Below are positions 4,340 to 61,057 of a stretch of DNA of 64,000 nucleotides, piece by piece. The notes under the pieces were generated by a model. That model was given only the letters and a program-made list of their open reading frames with translations, made no database searches and had not been told where the DNA came from. Source of the DNA: Bryobacterales bacterium. GTDB lineage: Bacteria; Acidobacteriota; Terriglobia; Bryobacterales; Bryobacteraceae. The position numbers and the translations under genes are program-made. Within the stretch, counting starts at the first letter, position 1; every line of letters begins with the position of its first letter. The stretch lies in contig JADZAF010000099.1 of NCBI GenBank assembly GCA_020852755.1, positions 32,125 through 96,124 on the forward strand, given 5' to 3'.

Positions 4340-4486
4340 GGCGCGCCGGCTGCGACCATTTCCGGAGCCACCAGCGTTTCCCGGCCGCGGCCCGGCAAAC
4401 ACGCTCTCCCGTTTCTTCTCGGCAGAGCGGTTCGATCCAGGCGGCGCCGCTCGCGTATAATCGGTGCGTCGATCCCGGAGGGTGAA

Positions 4487-12710: not shown

Positions 12711-12844
12711 GGCCTTGCGGTCCGAACTCATCGGAACTCCGCCTCCGAGCCGCGACCAGAGGGAGCGGTGGAACCGCTCCGCGCCGCCGCCCTTGGAGCC
12801 GCCGCCCCGCCGGGCGATTCCCCCCCGGTGGTACACTCGTCACG

Positions 12845-13483: not shown

Positions 13484-13599
13484 CGCGGGGAGGGACGAGT
13501 CCATGCGGGGCAACGCCCTCCGGACTCAGCCCGGCCCCCGAAGCATACCGTGGGATCGCAAGCCTGCGAAAAGCGGAACGTCCCGCCTGTCCCCGCGGT

Positions 13600-14442
13600 T
13601 CACGGTTTCTCGAAGGTGATGGAGCTTTCCGCTCCGAAGCGCTTGTACTCGCTATAGCGGATGTTCAACCGGATCCTCTGCGGGCCCGTGCGGAACTGCA
13701 GGGTGTCGTCCGCCCAGGTCCGCGCCGGGAACCAGTGCCCGCCGTCCACCGGGCGCCGGATGGTCGTGAAGCGCGGGAACAGATTCTCCGATTTCGTGCT
13801 GTAGATCTGGGGCACCGCCTGGCCTTCGGTTCGCACGATGGAGTAGTCCTTCTTGCTCACCCACAGCAGGCCTTCGAACAGGCGCATTCCCGAGAGGATC
13901 TGCCGCGGCCGCGCCTCCAGCACCCAGCAGTCCACCTCGTCCATCCTCTCTTCCCCTCGGAACCGGGTCTCGTACAGGCGCAGCGCCGCGGTGACCAGCA
14001 CCAGCGGCTGAATCTGGCGGATGTCCTGGAAATCCTCGGGCGTCAGGATCAGGCGTTTCAGCGTGTTCAGCGGCGTTTCCAGAAGCTGTTCCGTGCGCTC
14101 CTGCTGTGGCGAAAAGATGATGTCCCGCACCTCGCGATACTCGCCCACCATCATGCCGCGGTCGTTCACTTCCTCGATCGAAACGCTCTGCCGGTAGGTG
14201 TACTGGTTGCGCACCGCTTCGGTTTCGGTTTCCTTCTTTGCCACGTTGCGAGTCAGTTCCGCCAGGGGCGGCTGTGCATCCACCGGAGCTATCAGACAGC
14301 CGAATGCTAAAATGACGCCGATGCTTCCGTGGCGGCGAAACTTCCTTCTGGCCCTTCTGATCGGATGGGCCGTGCTGAGCGTGGCGGGTTTCCTGTATGC
14401 CCGCGAGAAATTCGTGCCTCCCAGCCTGGCCGTGCCCATCAT
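13600..14442 (-). CDS. hypothetical exported protein (LolA-like/outer-membrane lipoprotein-sorting-like fold guess)
   Basis: Arg-rich n-region then hydrophobic IGVILAFGCLIAPVDAQ. There is no in-frame ATG/GTG/TTG near the signal peptide, so the upstream Met pair is used. This overlaps the divergent CPBP start. Confidence 0.45.
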   Translation of the reverse strand: MMGTARLGGTNFSRAYRKPATLSTAHPIRRARRKFRRHGSIGVILAFGCLIAPVDAQPPLAELTRNVAKKETETEAVRNQYTYRQSVSIEEVNDRGMMVGEYREVRDIIFSPQQERTEQLLETPLNTLKRLILTPEDFQDIRQIQPLVLVTAALRLYETRFRGEERMDEVDCWVLEARPRQILSGMRLFEGLLWVSKKDYSIVRTEGQAVPQIYSTKSENLFPRFTTIRRPVDGGHWFPARTWADDTLQFRTGPQRIRLNIRYSEYKRFGAESSITFEKP

Positions 14443-15295
14443 TGCCGCATTCCTCTTCGAGTACCCATTTTATCTGCTGCCCGGATTCGCAGGCGCCCGG
14501 GAGTGGCTTTCCCGGCGGCTCCTGTCTCCCACGCTCGCCGTCCTGCTGACCGCCAGCGCCCTGGCGCCGTATCTGGTCTACAGCCTCGGCGCCGGCCAGT
14601 TTCGATGGGGCGCGCTCGTCCGGCTGGCGGTGCTGGCCGCGGCCGTGTCCTTCTGGTACGTGATCCGGCAGCCCTCCGTCACCGCCGATGTGGCGTTCCT
14701 CGTTCTGCTGGCGGCGCCCATCCTGATGCGCTTCTTCGACTGGGTCTACACCTCGCCGCTGCTCAACCTGGACCTGGATGTCCTGGGCCAGTTGATGCTC
14801 ATCCGCCTGGCCGCGGCCGCGGTCCTCATCTTTCGAAAGCCGGAGGGCGTCGGTTTCGGCTTCCTGCCCACGGCGCGCGAATGGAAGATCGGAGTGCTGC
14901 ACTTCGCCATGTTCATTCCGGTCGGGTTTGCCCTGGCCCTGGCCATCGGACTGTATCGCTTCCAGCCCTCCTTCGGGCCCTGGTGGAAGCCGGTGGGGCT
15001 GTTCGTGGGCATGCTGTGGGTGGTAGCGCTCTCCGAGGAGTTCCTGTTTCGCGGCCTGTTGCAGCGCTGGCTTACCGACTGGCTGGGCCGGCCGCAGGCC
15101 GCTCTGATTCTGGCCGCGCTGCTGTTCGGGTCGGTCCATTTGTGGTTCCGCCAGTTTCCGAACTGGCGCTTCGCGCTGGTGGCCGCCGTGGCGGGCTGGT
15201 TCTACGGCCGCGCCTACCGCGTGGCCGGAGGCATCCGGGCCGCCATGGTGGCGCACGCGCTGACCAACGTGGTGGCGAAGACCCTGTTCGCTTGA
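14309..15295 (+). CDS. CPBP family intramembrane glutamic endopeptidase (CAAX protease-like)
   Basis: Motifs SEEFLFRGLL, FGSVHLW and HALTN in TM helices. The start is uncertain. Confidence 0.7.
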   Translation, partial: KMTPMLPWRRNFLLALLIGWAVLSVAGFLYAREKFVPPSLAVPIIAAFLFEYPFYLLPGFAGAREWLSRRLLSPTLAVLLTASALAPYLVYSLGAGQFRWGALVRLAVLAAAVSFWYVIRQPSVTADVAFLVLLAAPILMRFFDWVYTSPLLNLDLDVLGQLMLIRLAAAAVLIFRKPEGVGFGFLPTAREWKIGVLHFAMFIPVGFALALAIGLYRFQPSFGPWWKPVGLFVGMLWVVALSEEFLFRGLLQRWLTDWLGRPQAALILAALLFGSVHLWFRQFPNWRFALVAAVAGWFYGRAYRVAGGIRAAMVAHALTNVVAKTLFA

Positions 15296-33385: not shown

Positions 33386-36300
33386 CTACCCGTTTTCCCC
33401 CGCGGTTCGGGCGATCTGAAGGAGATAAAAGCGCAGCATATCCTGCTGCCGTCCGGAGAGGGCCTGCTCCTCGATCCGGATAATCTGCTTCACTTCCTTC
33501 ATCGCCCGGACCACGCTGGTGGGAAGCTCCACCGAGCCCCGGGGCATTGACGACAGGTATTCGAAAGCCGCCCGCAGAAAGTGCTGCAGCGAATCCTCGG
33601 CCGGCCCGCTCAGGAACGTCGCCACCTCGCGCGGCTTCTTGGAGATGCCGGAGGTGAAGGGCATCTCGGAAACCGGTGTGCGTTGAGCGATCGAGTGCAG
33701 CGCCGTGGCCAGTTCCACGAAGCTCGCCACGCGCGTGAATACCGGTTCCTGCAGCAGCTCCCAGGCCTTCTCGCGCCAGCCCCGGATCTTTTCCGGAAGC
33801 TCCAGCAGCCGTTCCACCTCCCCGCGCCAGGAGGCCGGCACCCCGCCCCCGATCTCCCGCAGCAGCGCGCCGGCGCTGGTGTTGAAGAGGTCCGGCTGCA
33901 GCAGCACCGCCAGGTCCGGCCGCAGCGCCGGCAGCAGCCGCGGGATGAAGCGATCACCTTCGAAGAACTCGGCCACTTGCACGCCGTGCCGGCGCACCAC
34001 TTCCTTTTGGAACAGCGGGATGGTGGTCCGGATGGAATCCACGTCTTCGCGCAGCAGGGTGAAGGCCGAATTGCCGGCCGGGAACGCGCGCTCCATGGCG
34101 CCCAGCCAGCGCAGCTCCACGTCGTGATAGAGCCGCAGCGAATGCAGGATCTCGTAGACCGGAAGGTGCGGCAGGATCCTGCCGGACAGCATGCCCTCGC
34201 CTTCCCCCTCCGAGGACGGGGTTCGGGCGAACGAACTCAGCGTCCGGAACAGCCCGGTGGTCAACTGGTTGATGCCCAGCAGCAGGGTCTGGGCCTGGTT
34301 GTGCCCGATGGCCCGCAGCGAGCTGCCGTGCCGCGCCAGGGGCACGGTGGCCGCGATCCGCTCCAGGATCTTGTGTCCCCGGCTGGCGGCCACTCCCGGA
34401 GCCGGCCGCACCGTCGGCCGGTCCCGCAGCGGCGGCAGCGTCCGGGCGATGAAGTACGAGATCGCGTAGATGCCCACCACGTCCTCTTCGCGGCCGTAGA
34501 GGATCCGGCGGAAGTTTTCCGCCGCGAGTTTCATGAATTCGTCGAACAGTGGGTCCTGCAATCCCACCGTCAGGCGCCCCAGCTCCTGGAGACCGCGATT
34601 GGTGAATTGGAGCCGGGTTTCCGTCAACGGCTCCGCCGCGCGGCGCAGCTCGTTGGCCGAGAATCGCTGGGCCTGCGTCAGGTGATACAGCACCTGCGCC
34701 AGTTCCTCCACGGGCAGGTGCCGCAGCCGTTCCGCCAGGTTGCTCTGGAAGGTCCGGAGGTCGCCGCTGGCGAACAGTCCCATCAGGGGCGTGGCGGCAT
34801 AGCGCGCGCTGCGCTTGGCCGAAGCTTCCACGAGCCTGCCCAGGGCGGCTTCATTCTCGGAAGTCAGGATGAAGGCGCGCCGGCCGGAGATCGGCGCCAG
34901 GTAGCCGCCCTGCCGCTGCATCGGCTCGCCGCTGCCCATCTTGATGCGCACCTGCCCCACCAGGCCGCGCTCGGCCAGCCAGCGCACGATCTCGTACTTC
35001 GCCTTTTTGAAGGCGGCCAGCCCGGCGGTCTGGCCGACCTGCTGGCTCAGATCCGAGCCGGCGATGAAGACCTCGCACACCATGTCGGAAAACCGCTCCT
35101 CGGTGCTCTCGTTCAACCGGCGGCTCTGGATGGCGTAGTCCCACAGCTTTCCCAGGTAGGCCGGCACGTTGCGCACCACTTCCAGGTCCTCATACAAAGG
35201 CACCAGCCAGATGGAAGGCAGCTCCGGGCAGCCCGAGCGCAGCGCCTGCTCGCGCTTGGCCCGGATCTTGCGGTCCAGCGAGATCAGCGCTTCGGCATCG
35301 GACGCCATGCTCACCTGCAGCGCCAGCACCATGCCGGGGTTGCCCTGCCGGCCCGAAATCTCGTTGATCTCTACAATGTTGTGCACCGTGGTGTCGATGG
35401 CGAAGGGATCCGGCGAGGTCACCAGGTTCTGATGGATGCGCGGCGTGATCACGAAGCGCCGCAGCAGGTCGCGGTAGCCCGCCGCGGCCAGGGCGAATTC
35501 ACTGTCCCGGACGTGCTTGCGCAACTCGCCCAGGTGCGCCCGCAGCGTCTTGCGCAGGGCTTTGTTCAGCGCGAAGTAGTGTTCCAGGGTCTGCCGCCGC
35601 TGCCGCCGCAGTTCCAGCATTCGCCGCTCCAGGCGGTCGTTATGCTCCCACAGCGAGACCACCGGGTCCTGCGCCAGGCGCAGCTTCATCCCCAGCCTGC
35701 GGACTACGCCCGGCCGCACGTCGTAGGGGAGCAGGCCGCGGTAGCGGCGCTCGAGCTGGTGGGTCAGATCGGTGATCGCGTCGAATAGCGCACTGAAGCG
35801 CCGGTTGGCCATCGGCAGCCGCCGCACTTCCTCCACCAGGTTCGGATCCACCGGAAGAGCCGGGTTGGCCCTCAGGAGCATGGCCAGCAGCCGCCCCAGC
35901 CGGGCGCAATTCTCCATCAGCACCGTCGCCACCAGGCGGTGCCCCTGCCCCGACGGCCGGTTGCTGCCGTCCCAATCGCCCCAGTAGGAGAGAAAGGTGG
36001 GGCACTCCGTGGCGGAGCTGAAGCGGGCGAAATCCTCTGCCGCGATCATCGCGTCCAGGTCCAGCAGCAATTCAGTGCCTTCACCCCGCGAGTCGATCGC
36101 CACGTTGAGTCCCAGAAACTCGCGCGCCAGTTCTCTCGCCAGCGGCTGCTCCAGTTCGTCCGCCGGCCGGCCCGCGGTCAGGTTGGCGACGGCGCGCTCC
36201 CAGAGCATCTCCGACTGGATCGAGTACATCTGGGTGGGGTGTACGGTGCGATCGAAAAGCCGCTGCCGGAATGAAACCTGCCGGCGCCCCAGGTCGTCCT

Positions 36301-38971
36301 TGACCAGTTCCTGGTCCAACTGCTGTTCGAGCTTCCTGCCGTCGTCCGCCCGGGCCAGGGCCAGCCACTCCTGGGCCAGTTCCAGGCGGTCCCGGAAGCG
36401 CGAACCGAAGACCTCCAGGCGGTCGTTCAGGAACTCCCCCGGAGAGGCCGCGTCCGCGCTCCACTTGGCGGGCGCGTTCAGTTCCTTCAACTCCCGCCCG
36501 ATGCGCTCCCGGCAGGACTCGGCCACCCGGCTGCTGAAGGCCGCCCACTGCCGCTCCCGCTCGGCTCGCTCCACCCCCTGGTAGAGGCGCCGGCTGGAAA
36601 CGGCCAGCCATTTCCGGTTGTAGTGGGATTCCTCTTCCGCGATCAGCCGGTTCAGATCGATCAGGACGCGGCGGGTCTTGGTTCGAAGCCGGTCCGCGCC
36701 GTCCGTGCCGCCCAGAGTCAGCCGGAACGATTTTCGCGCGGTCTCGAAGCCCTCTTCGGTACGCGCGAAGGTGGAAAGCGGGACGAGGCCGATTCCCTGG
36801 CGCGCCAGTCCCGAGGCGATCCAATCCAGCGAGATTCCCGCCGGGAGCTGCCGCAGCGTCATGCGCGGATACATGCTGCCCGCCGGGCGGGTGAGCGCGA
36901 TCCCGAAGGGATTGCGTTCCGAAGGCAGACCGGCCGCCGCCGTCTCGAGCGCGCTCATCCGCTCCTCGAAGATCGCGTTCCGCAGCCGCCAGTACGAGTT
37001 GGTGCTCTGCGCTCCCTTGCGGTAGAACAGGTAGGCCAGCAGCATCGCTCCGATGTTCGGCGCGATGGTGCTGTTGACGGCTTCAAACCGCCGGTGCAGC
37101 TCCGCGTCCCGGATCTCGATCACCGAAAGCCGGGCGCCCGCCAGGCAATCCGTCTTCGAGAGCGAATGCACCGTGACCACCCGGCCGGCCTGTTCCGCCG
37201 TGAGGTAGCCCCGGCCCGCCAGGTCGTCGGCCAGTTGCCGCAGCGTGGCGGGTCCCTGCAATTCCCTGGAAGGCGCCACGTTCTGGTAGGAAAGGTCGTC
37301 GATCACCAGCACCCCGCGCTCCAGGAAATGCCGGAGCAGGGTGCGCAGCGCCTCTTCGGAAAAGACCTGGCCGGTGGCGTTGTGCGGGTTGTTGAAGACC
37401 ACCGCTCCGTGATTGCGCCACGCGGGGTCCCCGGCCAGCCGCTGCTCGACCGCCTCGATCATCCGCTCCACGTCCAGTTCAAACTCCGGGGTAAGGGGAA
37501 CCGCGGTCACTTTCGGGAAGCAGTGTTCGTAGGTCCAGCTCAGGTCCGGAATCACCACCTCCCGGATCCCGCAGTGGAACCCGAGCAGGCTGAGACCGGT
37601 GCGCGCCGATCCGCTCACCGCCATGCAGCGGTCGAAGCGGTACTCCGGGTGATGCCGCAGGAAAGCGGCAAGGAAAGCGCCGGGCAGTTCCGCGTGCCGG
37701 GCCGGCAGCGCTTCGAGCAGTTCGAGGAACCCCAGCCCCTCGAAGGGATCGCCGATGAACGAGTCGCGCAGCGCGGGCTCCCACAGTCTCTCCGCCCGCT
37801 CCGCGGCCCGCGCGGATGCCGCATCCAGCCGCTGTTCGATCCTCTCTCCCCAGGCGCTCGAAATCCGGGCTGCCCTGGCCTGGATCGCGGCAATGGCCGC
37901 TCCGGCCGCCCGGTAGGCCCCCTCCAGAACCGCATGGTTTTCGTCGTACAGCCGTTCCTCCGCCTCCGGCCGGGTTTCCAATTTCGGCAATCCCCGCTTC
38001 AGCAGAAAGGTCAATAGTTCGACTTCGGCCGCCGAGGGAGTGCCCTTCACTTGAAAGTGCAAGGTCTCGATCATCCGGATGAATTCGTCGAAACCGGCGA
38101 TGAAGACCGTGGACAGTTCCTTGAGGCGCGGGGAGAAGATGCCCGGAGTGAGGAACCGCAGGGTGCGGTGCATCATCTTCGCTTCCCGCGCCACCGACAG
38201 GTGGTTCGGGGCGTCGTTCACCTCCACGATGAACAGCGGGTAGTCGCGGCTGATCAGCCGCAGCCTGCGCCGCGTCTCTTCCGGAAGAATCCTGCCCAGC
38301 AGCACGAAAGACGGCCGGACCCCATTGGGCGCCAGGGAGGTTTCCAGCAGCGTCGCGGCGGCGCTTTCGTTTTCGGGAAGCGGATGCAACCGGAGCGCCT
38401 CAAACTGCCTCAGGTGAGGCGGAATCCGGATCCCGTGCGTGAAGATGGTCGCCGGCAGGTGCTCCAACTGCGTCGAGAGGGCGTGAAAGAAGACCCGCAG
38501 CGCCTCGTAGATCCCGCCCGACGCCAGGATCACTTCCCGCCGCCCGGTCTTCTCGCCGAAATCGTAGGTCAGCGGCTCCGGCTGTTTCGCCAGCCACTCG
38601 CCGAACAGCCGGATCAGCTCCCCCGGCTTGTTCTTCAGGAATCCGCCCCGCGGCAGATACGGCGCGCTGTTCCGGATGAGGTTCAGCAGGAACTCGATTT
38701 TGCCCCGGTCTTCCGCCTCCCAGCCCAGCTCGGCGCTCAGAGCCTGCGCCAGGTCGCCCGTCCCCGCCTTCTCTCCCCCTTCCAGTCCCAGCGCGATTCG
38801 GGCATACAATTCCGCCAGGCGCGGGTCCTGCACCGGGTTGCCGATATGGAAGTTGACGCGCTCTTCGGGCGGCGCGGGCGAGGACGCCGTGGCTTCGCTG
38901 ATCTCCGAAACCACCGCGGCCTTCACCGGCCGCAGGGCAAAGACGTCGGGTGAACTCTCACGCATGCGCAT
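33386..38971 (-). CDS. 1861-aa multidomain protein: class-I/II PLP aminotransferase-fold domain(s) fused to a C-terminal divergent PEP-carboxylase-like domain
   Basis: Aminotransferase motifs at residues 527-534 (NNPHNATG) and 603-615 (SLSKTDCLAGARL), with VNFHIGNPVQDP near the N-terminus. C-terminal region: GRQGNP (cf. PEPC GGDRDGNP), VPLYEDLEVVRNVP (cf. VPLFETxxDLxNA), FIAGSDLSQQ (cf. MIGYSDSAKD), KMGSGEPMQRQGG (cf. FHGRGGSIGRGG), and a C-terminal ...IARTAGENG (cf. ...IAAGMRNTG). Confidence 0.65.
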   Translation of the reverse strand: MRMRESSPDVFALRPVKAAVVSEISEATASSPAPPEERVNFHIGNPVQDPRLAELYARIALGLEGGEKAGTGDLAQALSAELGWEAEDRGKIEFLLNLIRNSAPYLPRGGFLKNKPGELIRLFGEWLAKQPEPLTYDFGEKTGRREVILASGGIYEALRVFFHALSTQLEHLPATIFTHGIRIPPHLRQFEALRLHPLPENESAAATLLETSLAPNGVRPSFVLLGRILPEETRRRLRLISRDYPLFIVEVNDAPNHLSVAREAKMMHRTLRFLTPGIFSPRLKELSTVFIAGFDEFIRMIETLHFQVKGTPSAAEVELLTFLLKRGLPKLETRPEAEERLYDENHAVLEGAYRAAGAAIAAIQARAARISSAWGERIEQRLDAASARAAERAERLWEPALRDSFIGDPFEGLGFLELLEALPARHAELPGAFLAAFLRHHPEYRFDRCMAVSGSARTGLSLLGFHCGIREVVIPDLSWTYEHCFPKVTAVPLTPEFELDVERMIEAVEQRLAGDPAWRNHGAVVFNNPHNATGQVFSEEALRTLLRHFLERGVLVIDDLSYQNVAPSRELQGPATLRQLADDLAGRGYLTAEQAGRVVTVHSLSKTDCLAGARLSVIEIRDAELHRRFEAVNSTIAPNIGAMLLAYLFYRKGAQSTNSYWRLRNAIFEERMSALETAAAGLPSERNPFGIALTRPAGSMYPRMTLRQLPAGISLDWIASGLARQGIGLVPLSTFARTEEGFETARKSFRLTLGGTDGADRLRTKTRRVLIDLNRLIAEEESHYNRKWLAVSSRRLYQGVERAERERQWAAFSSRVAESCRERIGRELKELNAPAKWSADAASPGEFLNDRLEVFGSRFRDRLELAQEWLALARADDGRKLEQQLDQELVKDDLGRRQVSFRQRLFDRTVHPTQMYSIQSEMLWERAVANLTAGRPADELEQPLARELAREFLGLNVAIDSRGEGTELLLDLDAMIAAEDFARFSSATECPTFLSYWGDWDGSNRPSGQGHRLVATVLMENCARLGRLLAMLLRANPALPVDPNLVEEVRRLPMANRRFSALFDAITDLTHQLERRYRGLLPYDVRPGVVRRLGMKLRLAQDPVVSLWEHNDRLERRMLELRRQRRQTLEHYFALNKALRKTLRAHLGELRKHVRDSEFALAAAGYRDLLRRFVITPRIHQNLVTSPDPFAIDTTVHNIVEINEISGRQGNPGMVLALQVSMASDAEALISLDRKIRAKREQALRSGCPELPSIWLVPLYEDLEVVRNVPAYLGKLWDYAIQSRRLNESTEERFSDMVCEVFIAGSDLSQQVGQTAGLAAFKKAKYEIVRWLAERGLVGQVRIKMGSGEPMQRQGGYLAPISGRRAFILTSENEAALGRLVEASAKRSARYAATPLMGLFASGDLRTFQSNLAERLRHLPVEELAQVLYHLTQAQRFSANELRRAAEPLTETRLQFTNRGLQELGRLTVGLQDPLFDEFMKLAAENFRRILYGREEDVVGIYAISYFIARTLPPLRDRPTVRPAPGVAASRGHKILERIAATVPLARHGSSLRAIGHNQAQTLLLGINQLTTGLFRTLSSFARTPSSEGEGEGMLSGRILPHLPVYEILHSLRLYHDVELRWLGAMERAFPAGNSAFTLLREDVDSIRTTIPLFQKEVVRRHGVQVAEFFEGDRFIPRLLPALRPDLAVLLQPDLFNTSAGALLREIGGGVPASWRGEVERLLELPEKIRGWREKAWELLQEPVFTRVASFVELATALHSIAQRTPVSEMPFTSGISKKPREVATFLSGPAEDSLQHFLRAAFEYLSSMPRGSVELPTSVVRAMKEVKQIIRIEEQALSGRQQDMLRFYLLQIARTAGENG

Positions 38972-47203: not shown

Positions 47204-47896
47204 TCAGGAGCGGCCGGTGGTGCGGTAGCGGTCCGCTACGAAATCCCAGTCGATGACGTTATGGAAGGCGGCCACGTAGTCGGCCCGCCGGTTTTGATAC
47301 TTCAGGTAATACGCGTGCTCCCACACGTCCAGGCCAAGAAGAGCGGTGCGGCCCTGGGTCGCCGGATTGTCCTGGTTGGGGGTACTCTCGATGCGCAACT
47401 GCCTGTTCGCATCCATGGCCAGCCACGCCCAGCCGCTGCCGAAGACCCCCATGGCGGCGCGGGTGAACTGTTCCTGGAATCTGTCGAAGCTTCCGAACGC
47501 CTGGTCGATGGCTCGGGCCAGTTCGCCTTTGGGCGCGCCGCCCTTCCTGGACATCATCTGCCAGAAGAGGCTGTGGTTCAGGTGGCCGCCTCCGTGATTG
47601 CGCACCGCCGTCCGCACGCCCTCCGGAAGCCCGCTCCAGCCGCTTACCAGTTCCTCCAGGCTGCGTCCCTGCAGGTTCGGGTGAGCGGCCAGGGCCGCGT
47701 TCAAATTGTTCACGTAGGCCGCATGATGGCGGCTGTGGTGAATCTCCATCGTGCGGGCGTCGATGTGCGGCTCCAGCGCGTCGTAGGCGTACGGCAGAGA
47801 GGGCAGGGAAAAGGCGGCCTTCGGCTGCGCCGCCAGTGAAACGGGACCTCCGGCCAACAGAACTCCCAGTACCGATCGTCTTGTCAACAGTGTCAT
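47204..47896 (-). CDS. sodA: Fe/Mn superoxide dismutase with N-terminal export signal
   Basis: [28 protein letters not shown]...DVWEHAYY. The N-terminus is RR-containing ([12 protein letters not shown]). Confidence 0.9.
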
Positions 47897-51814: not shown

Positions 51815-52219
51815 TTACTTATCGGAGGCGGCCGGCTGGACCTGTTGCGGGGGCTGGGCAACCTGGCTCCGCCACCATCCACCTCCCCGGGCGGCGAACC
51901 CGCGGCCCCGGCCGGCGCCCCATCCGCCGCCCCACGCCGCGCCTCCCCGGCCGCCACGCCGGCCGCCGCCGAATCCGAGCGGCCGGCCCTGCCCGACCGG
52001 GCGGCCAGTCAGGTCGCAGATTCCGTCCTTGTCCCTGTCATTCCACGCGCAGGGGACGCCTCCCCGCCCGCGCCCGCAGATCACCTGCTGGTCCTGTTGT
52101 TGAACGGCTCCGGGCGCCTGGGCCTGCGGTTGCGAGATCCCCTGGTCCCGGTTTTGGGCCGGCAGCATGGCCGCCGGCATCAGTATCGCTGCCATTGCCC
52201 ACAGCAAAATAGTCCTCAT
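51815..52219 (-). CDS. small exported Gly/Arg-rich, 4-Cys protein (hypothetical)
   Basis: Signal peptide, then CGRGRGGVPCAWNDRDKDGICDLTG, then GGGRRGGRGG repeats. The alternative plus-strand ORF is antisense to tlpA. Confidence 0.4.
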   Translation of the reverse strand: MRTILLWAMAAILMPAAMLPAQNRDQGISQPQAQAPGAVQQQDQQVICGRGRGGVPCAWNDRDKDGICDLTGRPVGQGRPLGFGGGRRGGRGGAAWGGGWGAGRGRGFAARGGGWWRSQVAQPPQQVQPAASDK

Positions 52220-53922: not shown

Positions 53923-54936
53923 TCACCATCCCAGAGCCATGGCGCCGGCTCCCAAGGCCAGGCCTGCGCTGAAGCCGATCGTCTTCACCTTCATGAATTC
54001 GCGGCGGGAGTGGGCCAGCATGGGCAGCATTCCATGGCCGTCCTGGACAATCGAGTTCGCCAGCAGAACGCTCAGCGGCACCGCGCCCTCGGCGAAAAGC
54101 GTGACAAAAACCAGGTGCGGGCCGGATTCGGGGATCAGGCCCACCAGGCAGGCGATCCATAGCACCATCCATTTCCCCCGCCGCAGGCTGGCCTCCAGGT
54201 GTAGCACCTCCGTAAGCAGATGCATGGCGGCCAGCGCGCCCAGCGTCCACAGGAAGACGCGCGGGGCATGCTTTTTCGCCACGTGCCGCCACAGATGTTC
54301 CCGAAGAAAGTGATCCGGGACCGTGGCCACGATGAACAGAGCCAGGGCCGAAACGACGGCCAGGCTGCCCCGAATCCAGTTCCACTCCGCCGGACCCAAT
54401 TGCCCGGTCAGGATTCCGGCCAGAAAGAGCCCCACAACAACCGACAGGACTCCTCTCTCGGCCGAACAGTCCTGCCACTCGGCCCGCACCCGTCTGAGTT
54501 CGAAATACGTCCGCCGGTCCTCCGCGTGCACTTCGAGGCAGGCTGCCGGCCGGTGCGTCAGGCGCCTCCCGCCCAGCAGATCCACCAGCACTCCGGCGAC
54601 GAGGCCGGAGACAGCCAGTATGACCATCAGGAACACGGCCTGCCGGGGGACCAGAGCCAGCATGACGAAAGCTTCGTCGCCGCTGGCGGCGATCATGGCC
54701 GTCACCACCGCTCCAAGCGTCAAGACGCCGTGCGAATACATCGCCACCGCCGCGAAGGCGCCCAGGCAGCCCGGCGTCACGCCCAGCAGCGCCGCCAGCA
54801 GGTACTGTCCCCAGCGGCGCCCGGCCAGCCGGGTTTGCCATCTTCCACCGCTCACCACGTTCAGGTACTCGATCAGCAGCATCATCGCCATGACGAAGGC
54901 GGTGATCAGTAGGGCGGTCTTGACCGGTTCGATCAT
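53923..54936 (-). CDS. putative 10-TM permease (ArsP_2-like heavy-metal/organoarsenical exporter family, tentative)
   Basis: Polytopic membrane protein with two internally repeated halves. The family assignment is from memory. Confidence 0.45.
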   Translation of the reverse strand: MIEPVKTALLITAFVMAMMLLIEYLNVVSGGRWQTRLAGRRWGQYLLAALLGVTPGCLGAFAAVAMYSHGVLTLGAVVTAMIAASGDEAFVMLALVPRQAVFLMVILAVSGLVAGVLVDLLGGRRLTHRPAACLEVHAEDRRTYFELRRVRAEWQDCSAERGVLSVVVGLFLAGILTGQLGPAEWNWIRGSLAVVSALALFIVATVPDHFLREHLWRHVAKKHAPRVFLWTLGALAAMHLLTEVLHLEASLRRGKWMVLWIACLVGLIPESGPHLVFVTLFAEGAVPLSVLLANSIVQDGHGMLPMLAHSRREFMKVKTIGFSAGLALGAGAMALGW

Positions 54937-54943
54937 CGGCGGC

Positions 54944-55408
54944 TTACGCTTTCCGCCTGATCGGCCACTGGCATACCCGGCCGATCCCCTGGCGTGCCAG
55001 GAGTCCGGCGCGGTCCTCCGCCTTGCACCCTGGAAAGAGGAAGCGCGGGTCCTCGAGCTCCTCCTTCAGAAAAGCCTCGAGAACTTCCTCGACGGAACCG
55101 CTCACCAACGGGATGATGCGTATGCCTGCCGAAGCCAGCATGGCCACCGCGGGGCGCGAGACCACGCCGCAAATCAGCACTTCCACCCCCAGGCTCCGAA
55201 GCAGCTTCACCCGGTTCACCGGAGCCACGCCTTTCAAAACCGCGGCTGTCCGCTCCAACGCGCGCCCGCCCAGGCACTCCACCGCCAGCAGCCGGCCGGC
55301 GAAATCGAACGTGGCGGCAATCCGGCTCCGGCTGATGGGGAATGCGACTGTTACCGCTCCGCTTCGGGGCGATCTGGCGCTAGCAGTAGGATCCTGGCTC
55401 GATGGCAT
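54944..55408 (-). CDS. NifX/NifB-family (dinitrogenase FeMo-cofactor-binding domain, DUF-like) protein
   Basis: VAFPIS...FDFAG..., ...ICGVVS.../...IPLVSGSVEEVLEAF... is the NifX/NafY-like fold. Its 5' end overlaps the racemase 3' end and no clean start codon is found. Confidence 0.55.
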   Translation of the reverse strand: MPSSQDPTASARSPRSGAVTVAFPISRSRIAATFDFAGRLLAVECLGGRALERTAAVLKGVAPVNRVKLLRSLGVEVLICGVVSRPAVAMLASAGIRIIPLVSGSVEEVLEAFLKEELEDPRFLFPGCKAEDRAGLLARQGIGRVCQWPIRRKA

Positions 55409-56087
55409 ACTCCAGCGCTCTCTCCGCATGCAGCAGGGTGGTATCGAACAACGGCAGGGGGCTATCGTGCCGCGACAGCAGCAGGGGCAGCTCCGTGCAA
55501 CCCAGAACGAGGCCCTGGGCGCCTGCCGTCCTCAGCTTCTCAATAATCCCCACGCACTCGCGCCGCGACTCGGGGCGGATCTCTGCCCGGCACAGCTCCT
55601 GGTAGATGATCGAGTTGACTCGAGCCTGGTCGTCGGACGCCGGCGCCAGCATCTCGATTCCCCACCGCTCGAGCGCCTCCCGGAAGAACTTCTCGCGCAT
55701 CGTGAAGACCGTTCCCAGCATGCCCACCACTTGCAGTCCCGCCGCGCGTATCGCCTGCGCCGTGGCGTCCATAATGCTGAGCAGTGGCATCCTGGTCGCC
55801 GCTTGCACCTCCTCAAAGACGATGTGCATCGTGTTCGTCGCGATCAGGCCGAAATCCGCTCCGGCCAACCGCAGGCGCTCCAGGGCATCCGCCATGGCCA
55901 GGGCTGCTTCCGTCCAGCGCCCCTGCTTCTGCCACTGGACAAACTGCTGGAACCGGACGCTGTAAATGAGAATCTCCGGGTATCCGAAGTCGCCGAAGCG
56001 GGCGGTGTATGAGCGGGTGATGTGCTCGTAATAAGTGGTCGTGGATTCCGGGCTCATGCCCCCGAGAATGCCGATTTTGCGATACAT
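55380..56087 (-). CDS. aspartate/glutamate racemase family protein
   Basis: MYRKIGILGGMSPESTTTYY... and ...LVLGCTELPLL... carry the two catalytic Cys/Thr motifs. Confidence 0.8.
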   Translation of the reverse strand: MYRKIGILGGMSPESTTTYYEHITRSYTARFGDFGYPEILIYSVRFQQFVQWQKQGRWTEAALAMADALERLRLAGADFGLIATNTMHIVFEEVQAATRMPLLSIMDATAQAIRAAGLQVVGMLGTVFTMREKFFREALERWGIEMLAPASDDQARVNSIIYQELCRAEIRPESRRECVGIIEKLRTAGAQGLVLGCTELPLLLSRHDSPLPLFDTTLLHAERALEYAIEPGSYC

Positions 56088-56989
56088 GCCGCGTCCTTTC
56101 CTTCGAGCAGAGCCCGCAGGCCCTCCCAAACCCGCCGAATATCGGCCGCGCAGCCCTCCCGCCGGTGCTCCACCACGGCCATCCCGCGGATCTGGGCCGC
56201 CGTCACGCCCGGGTCGTAGCGGATCCTGCCTGCCAGGGCGAACTTCTGGCTGCGTGCCCAGGCTTCAATCCGTGTAGTGATCTCCGGGTTCAGGTCCCAC
56301 TTGTTGACCGAGACGGCCAGGGGGATCCCGAAGTGATGCGCCAGGGCTGCCACCCGCTCCAGGTCATGCAGGCCGCTAAGGGTCGGCTCGCTTACCGCCA
56401 GGACAAGATCCGCCCCGGTGATGCATGCAATGACCGGGCATCCGATGCCCGGTGGCCCGTCGCTGATGACCAGTTCGATGCCCCGCTCTCCGGCCAGCCG
56501 GGCTGCGTTCCCCCGCACCGTGCTCACCAGCTTGCCGGAGTTCTCCGCCGCCACCCCGAGCCTGGCGTGTACCATGGGACCGCAGCGGGTCTCGGAAATG
56601 AACCAGTGGCCGTTAACCACGGGGCCGAACTCGATGGCCTGTTCGTTACAGAACCAGGCGCAGACTCCGCAGCCCTCGCACAAGATCGGATCGATGCGAA
56701 ACGTTCTTTCAACAGTCCCGTTTCCCGGACCGTCGCCGAAAACGGCATCGAAGCGGCACACCTCCTCGCATTTGCCGCAGGCAGTGCAGTGCCCCGGCCT
56801 GATTTGCGCCCGCTGGCCGCCCGCAAACGGGAAGCGCCTGACGTTGCGCGGCCCGAGCACCAGGTGGAGATCCGCGGCGTCCACGTCGCAGTCCGCCAGT
56901 ACGCAGGGCTGCCCCAAGGCGGCGAAAGAAGCTACCAGGGAGGTCTTGCCCGTGCCTCCCTTGCCGCTGATTACGGCCAGCTCCTTCAT
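56054..56989 (-). CDS. MinD/ParA-superfamily P-loop ATPase with inserted 4Fe-4S ferredoxin-type Cys motifs
   Basis: Deviant Walker A SGKGGTGKTS, and CxxCxxC(E)...C motifs (CTACGKCEEVC, CEGCGVCAWFC). Confidence 0.75.
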   Translation of the reverse strand: MKELAVISGKGGTGKTSLVASFAALGQPCVLADCDVDAADLHLVLGPRNVRRFPFAGGQRAQIRPGHCTACGKCEEVCRFDAVFGDGPGNGTVERTFRIDPILCEGCGVCAWFCNEQAIEFGPVVNGHWFISETRCGPMVHARLGVAAENSGKLVSTVRGNAARLAGERGIELVISDGPPGIGCPVIACITGADLVLAVSEPTLSGLHDLERVAALAHHFGIPLAVSVNKWDLNPEITTRIEAWARSQKFALAGRIRYDPGVTAAQIRGMAVVEHRREGCAADIRRVWEGLRALLEGKDAACIAKSAFSGA

Positions 56990-57837
56990 CGCTGTGCCTC
57001 GCATCCTGCCAGCCGCGTCAGGAGGTCCTCCAGCCGTTCGCGGAATTCCGGCACGGCCTCGCACGCCAGGACGCCCCGGGAATACGCCTCGGCAACCCTC
57101 CGGTTGTCCGGGATCTCGGCCAACACGTCGATTCCGTGCCGCCGGCAGTACGCCCGCGTCTCCCGGTCGCCTGAGTCGGACCGGTTGATCACCACGCCGA
57201 ACGGCAGGTGCAGCGCCCGGACCATCTCGACGGCCAGTTGGAGGTCGGAAAGTCCGAACGGGGTGGGTTCGGTCACCAGAGCGACAAAATCGGAGCCGCG
57301 CACGCTTTCAATCACGGCGCACGAGGTCCCGGGCGGGGAATCCACGATCACCAGGTCCGCCTCCGGAGCCGACGCCTTCACCCTCCGGACCAGCGGCGCG
57401 CTCATCGCTTCCCCGACCTCAAGCACCCCGCGCACGAACTGGAGGGGACCCGACTGGCCCGCTTCGAGCCTGCCCGTCTTACGGGTCCCCTCTCTGATGG
57501 CCCCGGCGCGGCAGACCAGAAGACAGCCGCCGCAGGCATGACACAGCTCCGGGTAGACAATTACCGTGCCGGCCACGCAGACGATGGCACTGTACTGGCA
57601 GATCTCGCCGCAAAGGCCGCAGCGCGTGCACTTCTTCTCATCTACCTGTGGATAGAGTCTTCCAACCGGCCGCGAGAGGGTGATCCCGGGCTTGAGGAAG
57701 ATATGACCATTCGGTTCCTCCACATCGCAATCGACGTAGACAACACGCAACCCCTTGGATGTCGCCAGGTAGGCAAGGTTTACCGCCACCGTCGTCTTCC
57801 CGGTTCCGCCTTTTCCGCTGGCTATGGCGATGCGCAT
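56986..57837 (-). CDS. MinD/ParA-superfamily P-loop ATPase with 4Fe-4S ferredoxin-type Cys motifs (paralog)
   Basis: SGKGGTGKTT; CTRCGLCGEIC and CHACGGCLLVC. A 4-nt ATGA overlap with the downstream paralog. Confidence 0.75.
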   Translation of the reverse strand: MRIAIASGKGGTGKTTVAVNLAYLATSKGLRVVYVDCDVEEPNGHIFLKPGITLSRPVGRLYPQVDEKKCTRCGLCGEICQYSAIVCVAGTVIVYPELCHACGGCLLVCRAGAIREGTRKTGRLEAGQSGPLQFVRGVLEVGEAMSAPLVRRVKASAPEADLVIVDSPPGTSCAVIESVRGSDFVALVTEPTPFGLSDLQLAVEMVRALHLPFGVVINRSDSGDRETRAYCRRHGIDVLAEIPDNRRVAEAYSRGVLACEAVPEFRERLEDLLTRLAGCEAQR

Positions 57838-57925
57838 GGAGGTTTTTCAGGTGTCCTTGGGCCAAGCCGGCCCCGGCCCGGCCCCGTAGTCCTGAGAGTC
57901 GGGTTGACCGGGCCGGCGCCGAAAG

Positions 57926-58204
57926 CTACTCCTCCTTTGTGTCCCTGGCTTCGAGATCTTCGATCCGTTTCCGAAGATCCTGGAACGCATTCCCGAACCA
58001 TCCCGCATTCCGTTGCCGGCCGGTCAGGCCTGTGGCATGGAACCAGTTGCGACGTCCCCTGCCGGCCCCGCGGCCCCGGCCCCGATATCCTCTGCCGCCC
58101 CCCGGCTGCACGCTGCCGGGACCATCGCGGCCACTGCAGAATCCCGCTCCGCGCCCTGTTCCCGGACCCGCTCCGAGCGGGCCTGTTCGATCCCCAAATG
58201 GCAT
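57926..58204 (-). CDS. DUF5320-like small protein
   Basis: MPFGDRTGPLGAGPGTGRGAGFCSG... is a Gly-rich N-terminus with a C-terminal coiled-coil. Confidence 0.6.
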   Translation of the reverse strand: MPFGDRTGPLGAGPGTGRGAGFCSGRDGPGSVQPGGGRGYRGRGRGAGRGRRNWFHATGLTGRQRNAGWFGNAFQDLRKRIEDLEARDTKEE

Positions 58205-58225
58205 TGTTGAACCTCCTGTCTTTCT

Positions 58226-58744
58226 TCAGATCCTTGTTAAGAACGCGCCGCATCTCGGGCACTCAGTCCGGTTGCATGGCTGGCCTGGCGCGTGCGGCGC
58301 TTTGTGGCCGCAGTTCGGGCACACGCACATGCCGCCCGGTCCCGCGGAGAAAGGCCCGCTCATTCGCCCGCGCTCTCGGCCCCCGCCCCCTTGAGAGCGC
58401 CGCCTCCCGGCGCCGCAGCCCGGCATCCGGAAGTCCGGCTGTGCGAGCCTCCCGTCCAGAAAAGCTCCCAGCACCTCTTCGATGCCGCCGCACACAAAGC
58501 CGATGACCCGCACGCCCGCGGACGCGAGCCTGGCCTCCAGAACCGCGGAGATGGCGCCGCAGATGAGGACCTTGGCGCCCAGCCCGGACACCTCGGCGGC
58601 ACGGCCCGCGGCGTCCTCCCGGGCCAACCGCTTCTTCTCGCGGCTCACTTCCCGTCCGTCCTCGACCTCAACCAGCAGCACCGCGCCGGCGCTGTCGAAC
58701 ACGGGCGATACGCGATCCTGCCAGTGCGGAATCGCGATTCTCAT
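58226..58744 (-). CDS. NifX/NifB-family domain protein with C-terminal Cys4 zinc-ribbon tail
   Basis: MRIAIPHWQDRVSPVF...LICGAIS... NifX-like domain, then GMCVCPNCGHK...CPRCG. Confidence 0.6.
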   Translation of the reverse strand: MRIAIPHWQDRVSPVFDSAGAVLLVEVEDGREVSREKKRLAREDAAGRAAEVSGLGAKVLICGAISAVLEARLASAGVRVIGFVCGGIEEVLGAFLDGRLAQPDFRMPGCGAGRRRSQGGGGRERGRMSGPFSAGPGGMCVCPNCGHKAPHAPGQPCNRTECPRCGAFLTRI

Positions 58745-58765
58745 CGCTCACCCGGCATGCACGGC

Positions 58766-58780
58766 GGGTGCCAGTCCGAA
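58766..58780 (-). promoter_or_regulatory. sigma54 promoter candidate TGGCAC-N5-GTGC (minus strand) upstream of the NifX-like/DUF5320/MinD-like gene run
   Basis: Minus-strand 5'-TGGCACCCGCCGTGC-3' has a perfect -24 TGGCAC and GC at -12. It lies only 17 nt upstream of the annotated ATG, which would imply a near-leaderless mRNA. Confidence 0.3.
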
Positions 58781-58853
58781 ACTCTCGGGAAACCCGGGTA
58801 TAACACTGCAAAGTGCCCGGATGCGCCGCTCCTGGCGCTTGCATGCTGCACTG

Positions 58854-58866
58854 GTGTAAGTTACAC
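58854..58866. promoter_or_regulatory. 13-bp perfect palindrome GTGTAAgTTACAC in the divergent intergenic region
   Basis: Read directly. It lies 10 nt upstream of the sigma54 activator start codon. Confidence 0.45.
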
Positions 58867-58876
58867 TGAAAACGCC

Positions 58877-60217
<1,341 letters not shown>

Positions 60218-60244
60218 CCGTGCATTCCGCGCGAGTGCCGCGGC

Positions 60245-60260
60245 TGGCCCCCGGCGTGCT
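60245..60260 (+). promoter_or_regulatory. sigma54 promoter candidate TGGCCC-N5-GTGCT upstream of the two plus-strand NifX-like genes
   Basis: GG at 60246-60247 and GC at 60258-60259, 10 nt apart. The ATG at 60289 is about 30 nt downstream, with AAAGAGAA before it. Confidence 0.35.
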
Positions 60261-60288
60261 CCAGGTCCGGTTCGAGCGAAAGAGAATC

Positions 60289-60699
60289 ATGAAACTGGCA
60301 GTCACTTCCCACGGCCCTCAGCTCCATTCCGCCCTCGACCCCCGCTTCGGCCGCGCCCGCCATTTCATCGTCGTCGATACCGAAACCGGCGCATCCACGG
60401 CGGTCGACAATTCCGCCGTATTGGATCTGGCCCAGGGGGCGGGAATACAGGCGGGCAGGCGGATCGTCGAACTGGGAGTCGAGGCCCTCGTCACCGGACA
60501 CGTCGGTCCCAAGGCGCTGGCCATCTTGCGGGCCGGCCGCGTGCGGATCTACACCGGCGCCTCCGGAGCCGTGGCTGACGCCCTCGAACTGTTCAGGCAA
60601 GGCAGGCTGGCCTGCTTGGATTCAGCGGACCCGCCAGGAGCCGGGGCCACGGCCGGTGCTTCCTTCCCCGCCGGAACCCGTCGAACCCAGCATTCCTAG
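60289..60699 (+). CDS. NifX/NifB-family domain protein
   Basis: MKLAVTSHGPQLHSALDPRFGRARHFIVVD...VTGHVGPKALAILRAGRVRIY is typical. Confidence 0.6.
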   Translation: MKLAVTSHGPQLHSALDPRFGRARHFIVVDTETGASTAVDNSAVLDLAQGAGIQAGRRIVELGVEALVTGHVGPKALAILRAGRVRIYTGASGAVADALELFRQGRLACLDSADPPGAGATAGASFPAGTRRTQHS

Positions 60700-60712
60700 G
60701 AGTAACCTCGTC

Positions 60713-61057
60713 ATGAACCTGCGAATCGCGCTCCCCCTCGCCGGGGGCCAGTTGTCCGCCCACTTCGGGCACTGTGAGAAGTTTGCCTTCATCGATGTCG
60801 ACTACATCGCCAGGGAGGTCCTCTGCGCCTCCGAAGTAGACGCCCCCGAGCATGAGCCCGGCCTGCTGCCGCGCTGGCTGCGCGAGCGCGGCGTCAACCT
60901 CGTGATCGCCTCCGGCATCGGCGCGCGCGCCACCCGCTTGCTCAACGACGCTCAAATCGGCGTCCTCACCGGCGCGCCGGCCCGGGAGCCCGCCGCCCTC
61001 GTGCGCGACTACCTGGACGGCCGCCTGACCACCGGGCGTAACGCCTGCGACCACTGA
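60713..61057 (+). CDS. NifX/NifB-family domain protein
   Basis: MNLRIALPLAGGQLSAHFGHCEKFAFIDVD...LVIASGIGARA. Confidence 0.6.
   Translation: MNLRIALPLAGGQLSAHFGHCEKFAFIDVDYIAREVLCASEVDAPEHEPGLLPRWLRERGVNLVIASGIGARATRLLNDAQIGVLTGAPAREPAALVRDYLDGRLTTGRNACDH

Follow-up and report, generated by a model that had tools for sequence, protein, structure and literature searches.

A probable acidobacterial version of the ORP gene cluster and its regulator OrpR in a Bryobacterales genome

Background

The ORP gene cluster of Desulfovibrio vulgaris Hildenborough (DvH) was reportedly defined by Fievet in 2011 in J. Bacteriol., and it provides the closest described counterpart of the locus that is the subject of the present study. 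This locus comprises ten tightly packed genes within positions 53923-61057 of a 64,000-nucleotide (nt) stretch of DNA from a Bryobacterales bacterium of the phylum Acidobacteriota (GenBank assembly GCA_020852755.1, contig JADZAF010000099.1, positions 32,125 to 96,124 of the forward strand), which has a GC content of approximately 66% and is hereafter called the window. In DvH, the cluster (DVU2103-DVU2109) consists of two divergent sigma-54 operons, orp5-orp4-orp3 and orp7-orp8-orp9, under the control of OrpR (DVU2106), whose gene lies between them (PMC8359166, PMC6345978, PMC3897727). According to the DvH papers, Orp3 and Orp4 are MinD-like proteins with two [4Fe-4S] motifs each, the orange protein, Orp8, binds a Mo-Cu sulfide cluster, [S2MoS2CuS2MoS2]3-, non-covalently, and Orp9 (MrpORP) joins a Mrp/NBP35 P-loop domain to a 'Di-Nase' domain of PF02579 (Fievet 2014, 2021; Pardoux 2019). 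The published Orp4 is a protein of 31 kDa, and in the PAS domain of OrpR there is a [4Fe-4S] cluster that is redox-labile and requires C52, C61, and C65, position 54 being a conserved Asp/Glu (PMC8359166). The activity of OrpR is limited to potentials near -425 mV in sulfidic culture, and the regulator has been reported as restricted to Deltaproteobacteria; work on the ORP system since 2011 has covered one group of organisms. The physiological role of the DvH cluster is called unclear by its own authors, and the sole published suggestion is cell division.

A further protein to be considered is IssA of Pyrococcus furiosus, a thioferrate Fe-S storage protein with a cationic Gly/Arg/aromatic tail that is proposed to wrap the thioferrate (PMC5524996). 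A preliminary description of the window, made from the sequence alone, had delimited a gene cluster at 54944-61057 and suggested a metallo-cluster carrier or insertion system of unknown client, distinct from nitrogenase maturation. Herein, we compare this locus with the described systems.

Results

The ten genes form two divergent units around the gene of a sigma-54 activator (Table 1), and all of them score above the curated profile thresholds of Pfam. We conclude with considerable confidence, from comparisons at the sequence level, that they represent the acidobacterial (Bryobacterales) version of the ORP gene cluster together with its dedicated regulator OrpR. This identity is based on homology, gene order, motifs, and promoter geometry; Fe-S binding, a redox response, complex formation, and the metals bound would be expected in the window by analogy with DvH. 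The regulated set of metal-cluster proteins under a dedicated sigma-54 PAS regulator, as seen in the preliminary description, therefore stands, although the system is not an uncharacterised one, being a homologue of the DvH ORP cluster and OrpR regulon. The carrier or insertion system with an unknown client is no more than a suggestion; the sole cluster transfer demonstrated in DvH is that from MrpORP into the ORP proteins themselves.

The regulator has the domain order of OrpR, with a PAS domain (PAS_4/PAS_9), an AAA+ Sigma54_activat domain (228 bits), AAA_lid_14, and a Fis-type HTH_8 domain. Its PAS domain carries the motif CSDVFRASICEQSC, that is C46-S-D48-x6-C55-x3-C59, and the spacing of the Cys triad and the Asp is exactly that of C52, D54, C61, and C65 in DvH OrpR. 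The Cys-rich PAS domain was rightly singled out in the preliminary description; it is not new, however, but a published [4Fe-4S] redox-sensor site with identical spacing. In addition, the sigma-54 contact loop reads GAFTDA in place of GAFTGA, and DVU2106 is likewise listed with GAFTDA (PMC4641369). The Cys motif is kept in 119 and GAFTDA in all of the 120 best homologues of the regulator, both recur in the activator adjoining the orp genes of a Desulfovibrionaceae locus (L086), and Desulfobacterota orp loci also have the Cys motif in their OrpR-like genes. The regulator is 100% identical to a protein named from a Bryobacterales metagenome-assembled genome, the 120 best homologues are approximately 73-79% identical to it and carry names from Bryobacteraceae, Acidobacteriaceae, Terriglobales, and Phycisphaerae, and the best Desulfobacterota copies are 55-59% identical. 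Such a high identity between Acidobacteriota and Phycisphaerae suggests either recent horizontal spread or a very strong constraint on the regulator.

The two MinD-type ATPases are paralogues, as had been described, and each contains the deviant Walker A motif GKGGTGKT and two CxxCxxCxxxC motifs in an inserted 2x[4Fe-4S] ferredoxin domain (Fer4 in both). The 311-amino-acid (aa) ATPase is 43-52% identical to the second ATPase of the ORP-MinD-MinD operons in Desulfobacterota, and for the 283-aa ATPase the identity to the first member of the ATPase pair at other loci is 42-57%. Two distinct MinD-Fer4 paralogues occur in the same order in approximately 70 Desulfobacterota ORP operons among the best 80 of at least 578 relatives retrieved with ORP as bait. 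No solved structure of the MinD-Fer4 subfamily was found. In two Phycisphaerae contigs that are otherwise identical (L003, 4997-6781, and L002, 6132-7915), the MinD-Fer4 genes are called separately in one and joined as a single 594-aa fusion in the other, so that either the fusion is genuine or the contigs differ through assembly or a frameshift.

Upstream of the ATPase pair, the DUF5320 protein has a pI of 11.4 and a charged C-terminal helix, and 24 of its 92 residues are Gly, 17 Arg+Lys, and 8 aromatic, in agreement with the Gly-rich protein of this family reported previously. It begins with MPFGD. The first codons of DvH orp5 are printed as MPYGD (Fig S1B, PMC3897727), and the next residue, given in the same figure and in a primer (PMC6345978), is G; in this comparison, which is confined to the printed first residues, the orp5 start MPYGDG corresponds to the DUF5320 N-terminus. 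Because of this match, the order DUF5320-MinD-MinD in the window would reproduce the order orp5-orp4-orp3. In a literature search on DUF5320, Orp3/Orp4, and OrpR, nothing was found beyond the Marseille/Lisbon papers.

All four small proteins that had been described as having a NifX/NafY fold were placed in PF02579 (Nitro_FeMo-Co) by profile search, with 34.1-74.8 bits against a gathering cut-off of 26.3 bits, and their closest relatives are ORP, MTH1175, TM1290, and the MrpORP C-terminal domain rather than NifX/NafY. The best PDB match of the product of 60289-60699 is 2WFB, the D. gigas orange protein (E 9.2e-20, 42% identity), which makes this gene the Orp8 homologue. The following gene encodes a protein with HFGHCE, PEHEPGLLP, and C-terminal CDH motifs, as described for MrpORP's Di-Nase domain. 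This protein is 54% identical to residues 376-487 of DVU2109, taken from the supplementary alignment of a published paper, over 112 ungapped aa (E 1e-37), and it matches the NCBIfam model NF041136 MrpORP with 110 bits (model cut-off 450) at profile positions 264-365 of 365. In other words, the window has only the Di-Nase domain as a stand-alone gene, and not the full two-domain Orp9/MrpORP with a CXXC-containing Mrp/NBP35 P-loop domain.

The remaining two PF02579 proteins are encoded on the minus strand. In an alignment of the four paralogues, the product of 54944-55408 is a paralogue of the N-terminal domain of the product of 58226-58744, with LICG and F..PGC motifs common to both. In the latter protein, the PF02579 domain is followed by a 31-aa Gly/Arg linker (pI 12) and a C-terminal motif, CxCPxCGxxxPHxxGxPCxxxxCPxCG, in which six Cys and one His are strictly conserved; the tail is Cys-rich, as noted before, and is not the Cys4 zinc ribbon that had been assumed. 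Across 19 loci this six-Cys/His motif is kept, in some proteins fused to PF02579 and in others standing alone. The stand-alone form, observed in L034 (3988-4287; an open reading frame (ORF) of 99 aa), L016, L064, and L095, is a small protein with a Gly-rich N-terminal half, and in L034 its gene lies just upstream of a DUF5320 gene and ORP. This small protein might be what the literature calls the 'small iron-sulfur protein of the ORP operon'.

The regulator gene sits between the two operons, each of which is headed by a predicted -24/-12 promoter. A relaxed -24/-12 pattern gave 18 matches on both strands of the 64 kb window, two of them directly upstream of both operons on the correct strands. 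Sigma-54 motifs precede the same genes at equivalent positions in many related loci, and promoters like that at 60244-60260 precede the ORP genes in L006, L010, L013, and L034. The whole-window count of TGGCAC-N5-TTGC (44 observed versus approximately 70 expected) was rejected as uninformative; only position and cross-locus conservation carry weight for these motifs. The minus-strand promoter ends 13 nt before the ATG at 58744, the same 13-nt gap is present in L028 (5159-5189), and the gap from the sigma-54 motif to the start is approximately 13-19 nt in L006 (9845-9875). Thus, the transcript of the minus-strand operon is predicted to be near-leaderless and without a Shine-Dalgarno sequence. 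The -12 element of this promoter, GTGC, is also that of the DvH orp2 promoter.

A palindrome with the consensus TTGCA-N3-TGCAA adjoins the OrpR gene in every locus in which OrpR is at least 67% identical, and we regard its copy in the window, TTGCATGCTGCAC, as the candidate OrpR operator. As in DvH, it would lie over the regulator's own promoter, and it has the core GCAnnnTGC in common with the DvH operator GGGCGYRTTTTGCGCCC, to which it is connected by intermediate forms. Most sigma-54 promoters of the loci whose regulators are 55-59% identical have, 70-180 nt upstream, the DvH-type operator GGGCGYRTTTTGCGCCC or an intermediate such as GGGTGCATTTTGCCCCC. The distance from the operator centre to the -24 GG is 73 nt both in the window and in the DvH orp2 promoter, as measured on the published printed sequence, and the distance from the regulator ATG to the operator is 25 nt in the window and 31 nt in DvH. 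These predicted promoters and the candidate palindrome in front of the operons are consistent with the co-regulation of the genes that the preliminary description implied. No obvious integration host factor (IHF) consensus was seen by eye between operator and promoter.

The left half of the palindrome probably doubles as the -35 element (TTGCAT, N17, TACACT at 58862-58867) of a sigma-70 promoter of the regulator gene, a tentative assignment for which the arrangement TTGCAn-N17/18-TAnnCT is kept in L001, L002, L004, and L006. A generic sigma-70 scan did not flag this putative promoter, and its putative -10 lies only 9 nt from the regulator ATG. The overlap of operator and promoter parallels the negative autoregulation described for DvH OrpR. 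Two other elements in this region were considered and rejected. CTGGCGCTTGCATGC at 58833, as a sigma-54 promoter of the regulator, has a spacing one base short, and the related loci show the operator palindrome there. GTGTAAGTTACAC at 58855-58867 was considered as an operator, and because only its TACACT part recurs across loci, at -10 distance from the TTGCAn half-site, it is read as part of the sigma-70-type promoter. A possible second OrpR site directly follows the orpR stop codon, where L002 has a perfect palindrome and L004 a GTGCATTTTGCAT site.

The neighbourhoods of the regulator's homologues also hold DUF5320, the two ATPases, and PF02579 genes. A metagenome scan yielded at least about 20 usable OrpR loci, and co-occurrence was counted within 8 kb in 24 non-redundant loci, each of which has a Cys-motif regulator and a flank of at least 6 kb. 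ORP was found in 21 of the 24 loci, MinD1 and the PF02579-six-Cys/His protein in 18 each, MinD2 in 16, the Orp9-CT-like protein in 13, DUF5320 in 11, and Mrp in 10. The genome scan with the ORP bait, which gives no measure of taxonomic spread, returned relatives whose best 80 are almost all from Desulfobacterota, with the core order ORP-MinD1-MinD2-PF02579. Two side observations concern single loci. In L089 (7838-10601), a regulator homologue that is 77% identical, with the Cys motif intact, adjoins a ferritin gene and a short ORP-like ORF and does not adjoin ATPases or DUF5320. In L086, two genes between the OrpR-like gene and ORP (4317-4760 and 5783-6200), whose products start with MGRPRKCRF and MPRPRKCRR and which we take to encode DUF134-type DNA-binding proteins, have no counterpart in the window.

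Table 1. Genes and predicted regulatory elements of the ORP-type cluster, in window positions
Feature	Position	Strand	Evidence
ArsP_2-family 10-TM (transmembrane) permease, last gene of the minus-strand operon	53923..54936	-	PF11449 ArsP_2, 125.3 bits
PF02579 protein, 154 aa	54944..55408	-	PF02579, 36.4 bits (ORF 54944-55429)
Asp/Glu-type amino-acid racemase	55380..56087	-	PF01177 Asp_Glu_race, 147.5 bits (ORF 55380-56129)
MinD-type ATPase, 311 aa, Orp3-like by operon position	56054..56989	-	CbiA + Fer4 (ORF 56054-57064)
MinD-type ATPase, 283 aa, Orp4-like by operon position	56986..57837	-	CbiA/ParA + Fer4
DUF5320 protein, 92 aa, Orp5-like	57926..58204	-	PF17253, 54.3 bits (cut-off 27)
PF02579 + six-Cys/His protein, 172 aa, heading the minus-strand sigma-54 operon	58226..58744	-	PF02579, 34.1 bits
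Predicted sigma-54 -24/-12 promoter CTGGCACCCGCCGTGCA	58758..58774	-	motif scan and cross-locus comparison
Candidate OrpR-binding palindrome TTGCATGCTGCAC	58839..58851	.	cross-locus comparison
OrpR homologue, 446 aa	58877..60217	+	PAS + Sigma54_activat + AAA_lid_14 + HTH_8 (Pfam)
Possible degenerate second OrpR site GTGCATTCCGCGC	60220..60232	.	read from the sequence
Predicted sigma-54 -24/-12 promoter CTGGCCCCCGGCGTGCT	60244..60260	+	28 nt upstream of the ORP gene
Orange-protein (Orp8/ORP) homologue, 136 aa	60289..60699	+	PF02579, 74.8 bits (ORF 60220-60699)
Stand-alone Orp9/MrpORP C-terminal Di-Nase domain homologue, 114 aa	60713..61057	+	PF02579, 63.8 bits (ORF 60656-61057)

The minus-strand unit comprises seven genes from 58744 down to 53923 with intergenic gaps of -34 to +88 nt, and the plus strand carries the regulator followed by two PF02579 genes. 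In a near-identical public contig (L001), the starts of the 154-aa PF02579 gene, the racemase, both ATPases, the regulator, and the two plus-strand PF02579 genes agree with those of the preliminary description. The racemase gene overlaps its neighbours by 29 and 34 nt, as the earlier account of overlapping gene ends had it, and between the two ATPase genes there is an overlap of 4 nt. The 10-TM permease, also mentioned there, starts 7 nt past the stop of the last PF02579 gene; therefore the unit extends to 53923, and of the boundaries proposed previously, 61057 is retained and 54944 is not. No intrinsic terminators above chance were detected in the window, and thus the operon ends are set by gene spacing only.

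The racemase matches TIGR00035 asp_race with 199 bits (cut-off 93) and is present in two of approximately 25 OrpR loci, the window and L092. In the latter (11909-14549; regulator 66% identical), OrpR is followed by two PF02579 genes, then by a 1-Cys peroxiredoxin, and finally by an Asp/Glu racemase 48% identical to that of the window, and because of this recurrence the window racemase is probably not a chance insertion. The permease matches NCBIfam NF037962 arsenic_eff with 139 bits (cut-off 100), and the single recurrence of an ArsP_2 gene near OrpR is in a Bryobacteraceae locus (L087). The permease is a lineage-specific accessory of the operon. Transporters occur in a minority of OrpR loci, approximately 6 of 25, and belong to varied families: ArsP_2 (window and L087), ABC-3 (L004 and L088), P-type ATPase (L002), and CDF and TauE elsewhere.

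The flanking genes are unrelated to the cluster and encode PfkB, KDPG aldolase, RraA-like, redoxin, DHDPS-family, DnaJ-domain, and Fe/Mn superoxide dismutase proteins. The DHDPS-family gene, 9 nt downstream of the permease, was excluded from the unit, as it groups with adjacent sugar-acid genes and does not recur in related loci. Directly downstream of the redoxin gene, the ORF 51815-52219 (minus strand) encodes a protein that starts with what resembles a signal peptide, contains three Cys, and has a long tail rich in Gly, Arg, and Trp (GGGRRGGRGGAAWGGGWGAGRGRGF...); Pfam gave no match, and the ORF's third-position GC content (GC3) of 0.81 is consistent with a real gene. This ORF was rejected as a relative of the orp loci, since its tblastn matches to Gly/Arg regions in the proteins of those loci reflect composition only. 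Elsewhere in the window, an ORF of 1861 aa (33386-38971, minus strand) has an aminotransferase class I/II domain as its sole Pfam match.

Discussion

In the present study, the ORP cluster of DvH and the locus in the window agree in their divergent sigma-54 operons around a PAS-AAA+-HTH activator, the sensor cysteines, the contact loop, an Orp8 homologue, an Orp9 Di-Nase homologue, the order of the DUF5320 (Orp5-like) and ATPase genes, and the position of the candidate operator. There are also differences. The host of the window belongs to Acidobacteriota, its Orp9 counterpart consists of the C-terminal domain only, and there are two extra PF02579 genes, one of which, the six-Cys/His fusion, is the first gene of its operon. 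The racemase and the ArsP_2 permease appear to be co-transcribed with the cluster, whereas transporters are unreported for the DvH cluster. The ORP gene lies on the strand of the regulator together with the Orp9-CT gene, no Orp7 was identified, and the flanks of the operator differ, with no obvious IHF site in the window. The differences in host phylum, operator flanks, and accessory genes lie within the variation seen among the Desulfobacterota loci, and the cluster is therefore placed in the known ORP/OrpR system.

Several observations weigh against this placement. The ORP component with a demonstrated activity, Fe-S transfer, is the Mrp/NBP35 P-loop domain, and no Mrp/NBP35 gene is present anywhere in the window. 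For OrpR, Orp3, Orp4, Orp5, and Orp7, the comparison drew only on what has been published about them, on a small number of printed residues, and on one metagenome-assembled genome of Desulfovibrionaceae. Because about half of the 24 loci were collected with ORP as bait, the count for ORP is inflated. The window palindrome departs from its own consensus at one position, its count alone shows no statistical enrichment, and its flanks are TTGCA...TGCAA, as opposed to GGGCG...CGCCC in the DvH operator. The second site after orpR is degenerate, and with only approximately 12 nt to the -24 element it is too near the promoter, which makes its function uncertain. Finally, an Fe/Mn superoxide dismutase gene (47204-47896, minus strand) lies 6 kb from the cluster, and the host is not an obvious strict anaerobe, though the system has been described as anaerobe-specific.

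Other described proteins resemble single parts of the cluster. IssA, which is found in anaerobes, has a PF02579/IPR003731 globular domain followed by a cationic Gly/Arg-rich segment that is disordered and binds an anionic inorganic Fe-S polymer, in a context unrelated to nitrogenase, and the same order of domain and segment is seen in the first protein of the minus-strand operon. The response of IssA to sulfur is mediated by SurR instead of a sigma-54 activator. In the window, moreover, the segment has 31 aa and leads into the six-Cys/His motif, whereas the IssA tail has 70 aa, and the long cationic Gly-rich sequence is on the separate DUF5320 protein; nanoparticle formation is a property of IssA, and the window proteins are known here from their genes. 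NifX, NafY, and the NifB C-terminal domain belong to the same PF02579 fold family, whose members bind complex metal-sulfur clusters and do so with no classical Cys ligation; the window has no nif context, however, and its proteins are nearest to ORP and the relatives named above. With Mrp/NBP35/ApbC and MinD, the window ATPases have the deviant Walker A motif and the SIMIBI-class fold in common, but Mrp/NBP35 has a bridging CXXC instead of an inserted ferredoxin domain, and no MinC/MinE partners, such as true MinD has, are encoded by the adjacent ORFs that were profiled.

Herein, we propose a model for the function of the cluster by analogy with DvH. The regulator would be permanently bound to the TTGCA-N3-TGCAA palindrome in the divergent intergenic region. 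At a very low redox potential, its PAS domain would hold a [4Fe-4S] cluster on C46, C55, and C59, and possibly D48, and in this cluster-loaded state the AAA+ domain would open sigma-54 RNA polymerase complexes at both -24/-12 promoters. When the potential rises, the cluster would degrade and the PAS domain would block activation, and the overlap of the palindrome with the regulator's sigma-70-type promoter might provide negative autoregulation. The products induced in this way would be an ORP with a non-covalent anionic metal-sulfide cluster (Mo/Cu in Desulfovibrio), the Orp4/Orp3-type ATPase pair with two [4Fe-4S] sites each, the Orp5-type cationic DUF5320 protein, the stand-alone Orp9 C-terminal domain, and two further PF02579 proteins, one of them the six-Cys/His fusion. 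In this lineage, the operon would have gained the racemase and the ArsP_2 permease, and Orp9 lacks its Mrp/NBP35 P-loop part. The metal-sulfur proteins of the cluster probably assemble as in DvH, and we favour the view that they form a complex that binds metal-sulfide clusters and would be expressed only under strongly reducing conditions.

Three other explanations of these genes were weighed. Since all four small proteins belong to PF02579, the family of NifX, NafY, and the NifB C-terminal domain, they might be carriers of FeMo-co or NifB-co for an enzyme encoded elsewhere, and the cluster would then serve the maturation of a nitrogenase-type cofactor. This is highly improbable. No NifH-type motif was found in six-frame translations of the whole 64 kb window, no nif-type or radical-SAM gene is present among the ORFs profiled between 33 and 64 kb, and the best matches of the four proteins lie with ORP, MTH1175, TM1290, and the MrpORP C-terminal domain and not with NifX/NafY. 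In addition, their partners are those of the ORP system (the MinD-Fer4 pair, DUF5320, and OrpR), which has not been described as nitrogenase maturation in the ORP papers cited. The preliminary description was therefore right in setting nitrogenase maturation aside. A role in cell division or positioning, in which membrane-associated MinD-like ATPases would act together with a racemase supplying D-amino acids for septal peptidoglycan, has some published background: morphology defects of DvH orp and orpR mutants underlie the positioning proposal, the DVU2106 regulon is annotated 'cell division' in published papers, Orp3/Orp4 are reported with a MinD-like C-terminal amphipathic helix, and MrpORP is polar. 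Both window ATPases likewise end in segments that look amphipathic by eye, EFRERLEDLLTRL and IRRVWEGLRALLEG, and an Asp/Glu racemase is found in two OrpR loci. However, these are only 2 of approximately 25 loci, no MinC, MinE, or Fts genes are present among the adjacent ORFs profiled, each ATPase has eight Fe-S cysteines and all of its partners are metal-cluster proteins, and the role of the system is called unclear by the DvH authors themselves. We consider a cell-division function of the window cluster improbable.

The third explanation is a functional variant of the ORP/OrpR identification itself, in which the OrpR regulon would be a system for low-redox, sulfidic conditions that captures, stores, or exports metal sulfides or thiometallates. 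The PF02579 domains and the cationic Gly/Arg-rich segments would hold anionic metal sulfides, and the permease would move the metal or a complex of it across the membrane. The DUF5320 protein and the 31-aa Gly/Arg linker do resemble the cationic Gly/Arg/aromatic tail of IssA, cluster binding by ORP is non-covalent, OrpR activity is confined to the neighbourhood of -425 mV in sulfidic culture, and metal-type transporters are present in several OrpR loci. On the other hand, the transporters occur in only approximately 6 of 25 loci, belong to differing families, and are unreported for the DvH cluster; the likeness to the IssA tail is compositional, as tblastn matches between the Gly/Arg-rich segments require the composition correction to be switched off; and the metal data for these proteins are confined to Desulfovibrio. 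On balance, storage or export appears rather unlikely. An extension of this idea, which we likewise regard as doubtful, is that outside the sulfate reducers the ORP/OrpR genes might be a portable low-redox module for metal-sulfide storage, detoxification, or export in facultatively anoxic soil bacteria, and not a cell-division factor. In some lineages, such a module would couple to transporters, ArsP_2 in the window and ABC-3, P-type ATPase, or CDF elsewhere, and if this were true, the identity of approximately 75-79% between the regulators of Acidobacteriota and Phycisphaerae would reflect recent horizontal spread.

Conclusions

The identification of the window cluster as a version of the ORP cluster with OrpR widens a known system and opens no new class of biology. 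It would place the regulator and operon module, with the sensor cysteines and the promoter spacing conserved, in Acidobacteriota and, by the names of the homologues, in Phycisphaerae, and thereby corrects the restriction of OrpR to Deltaproteobacteria given in the literature. The comparison of loci separates core parts (ORP, the two Fe-S ATPases, the Orp5-like DUF5320 protein, the PF02579-six-Cys/His protein, and the Orp9 C-terminal domain) from optional parts (the Mrp P-loop, the racemase, and transporters), and the uncharacterised Pfam family DUF5320 is tentatively tied to a named component, Orp5. Moreover, a second and phylogenetically distant context is offered in which the role of the ORP system may be tested.

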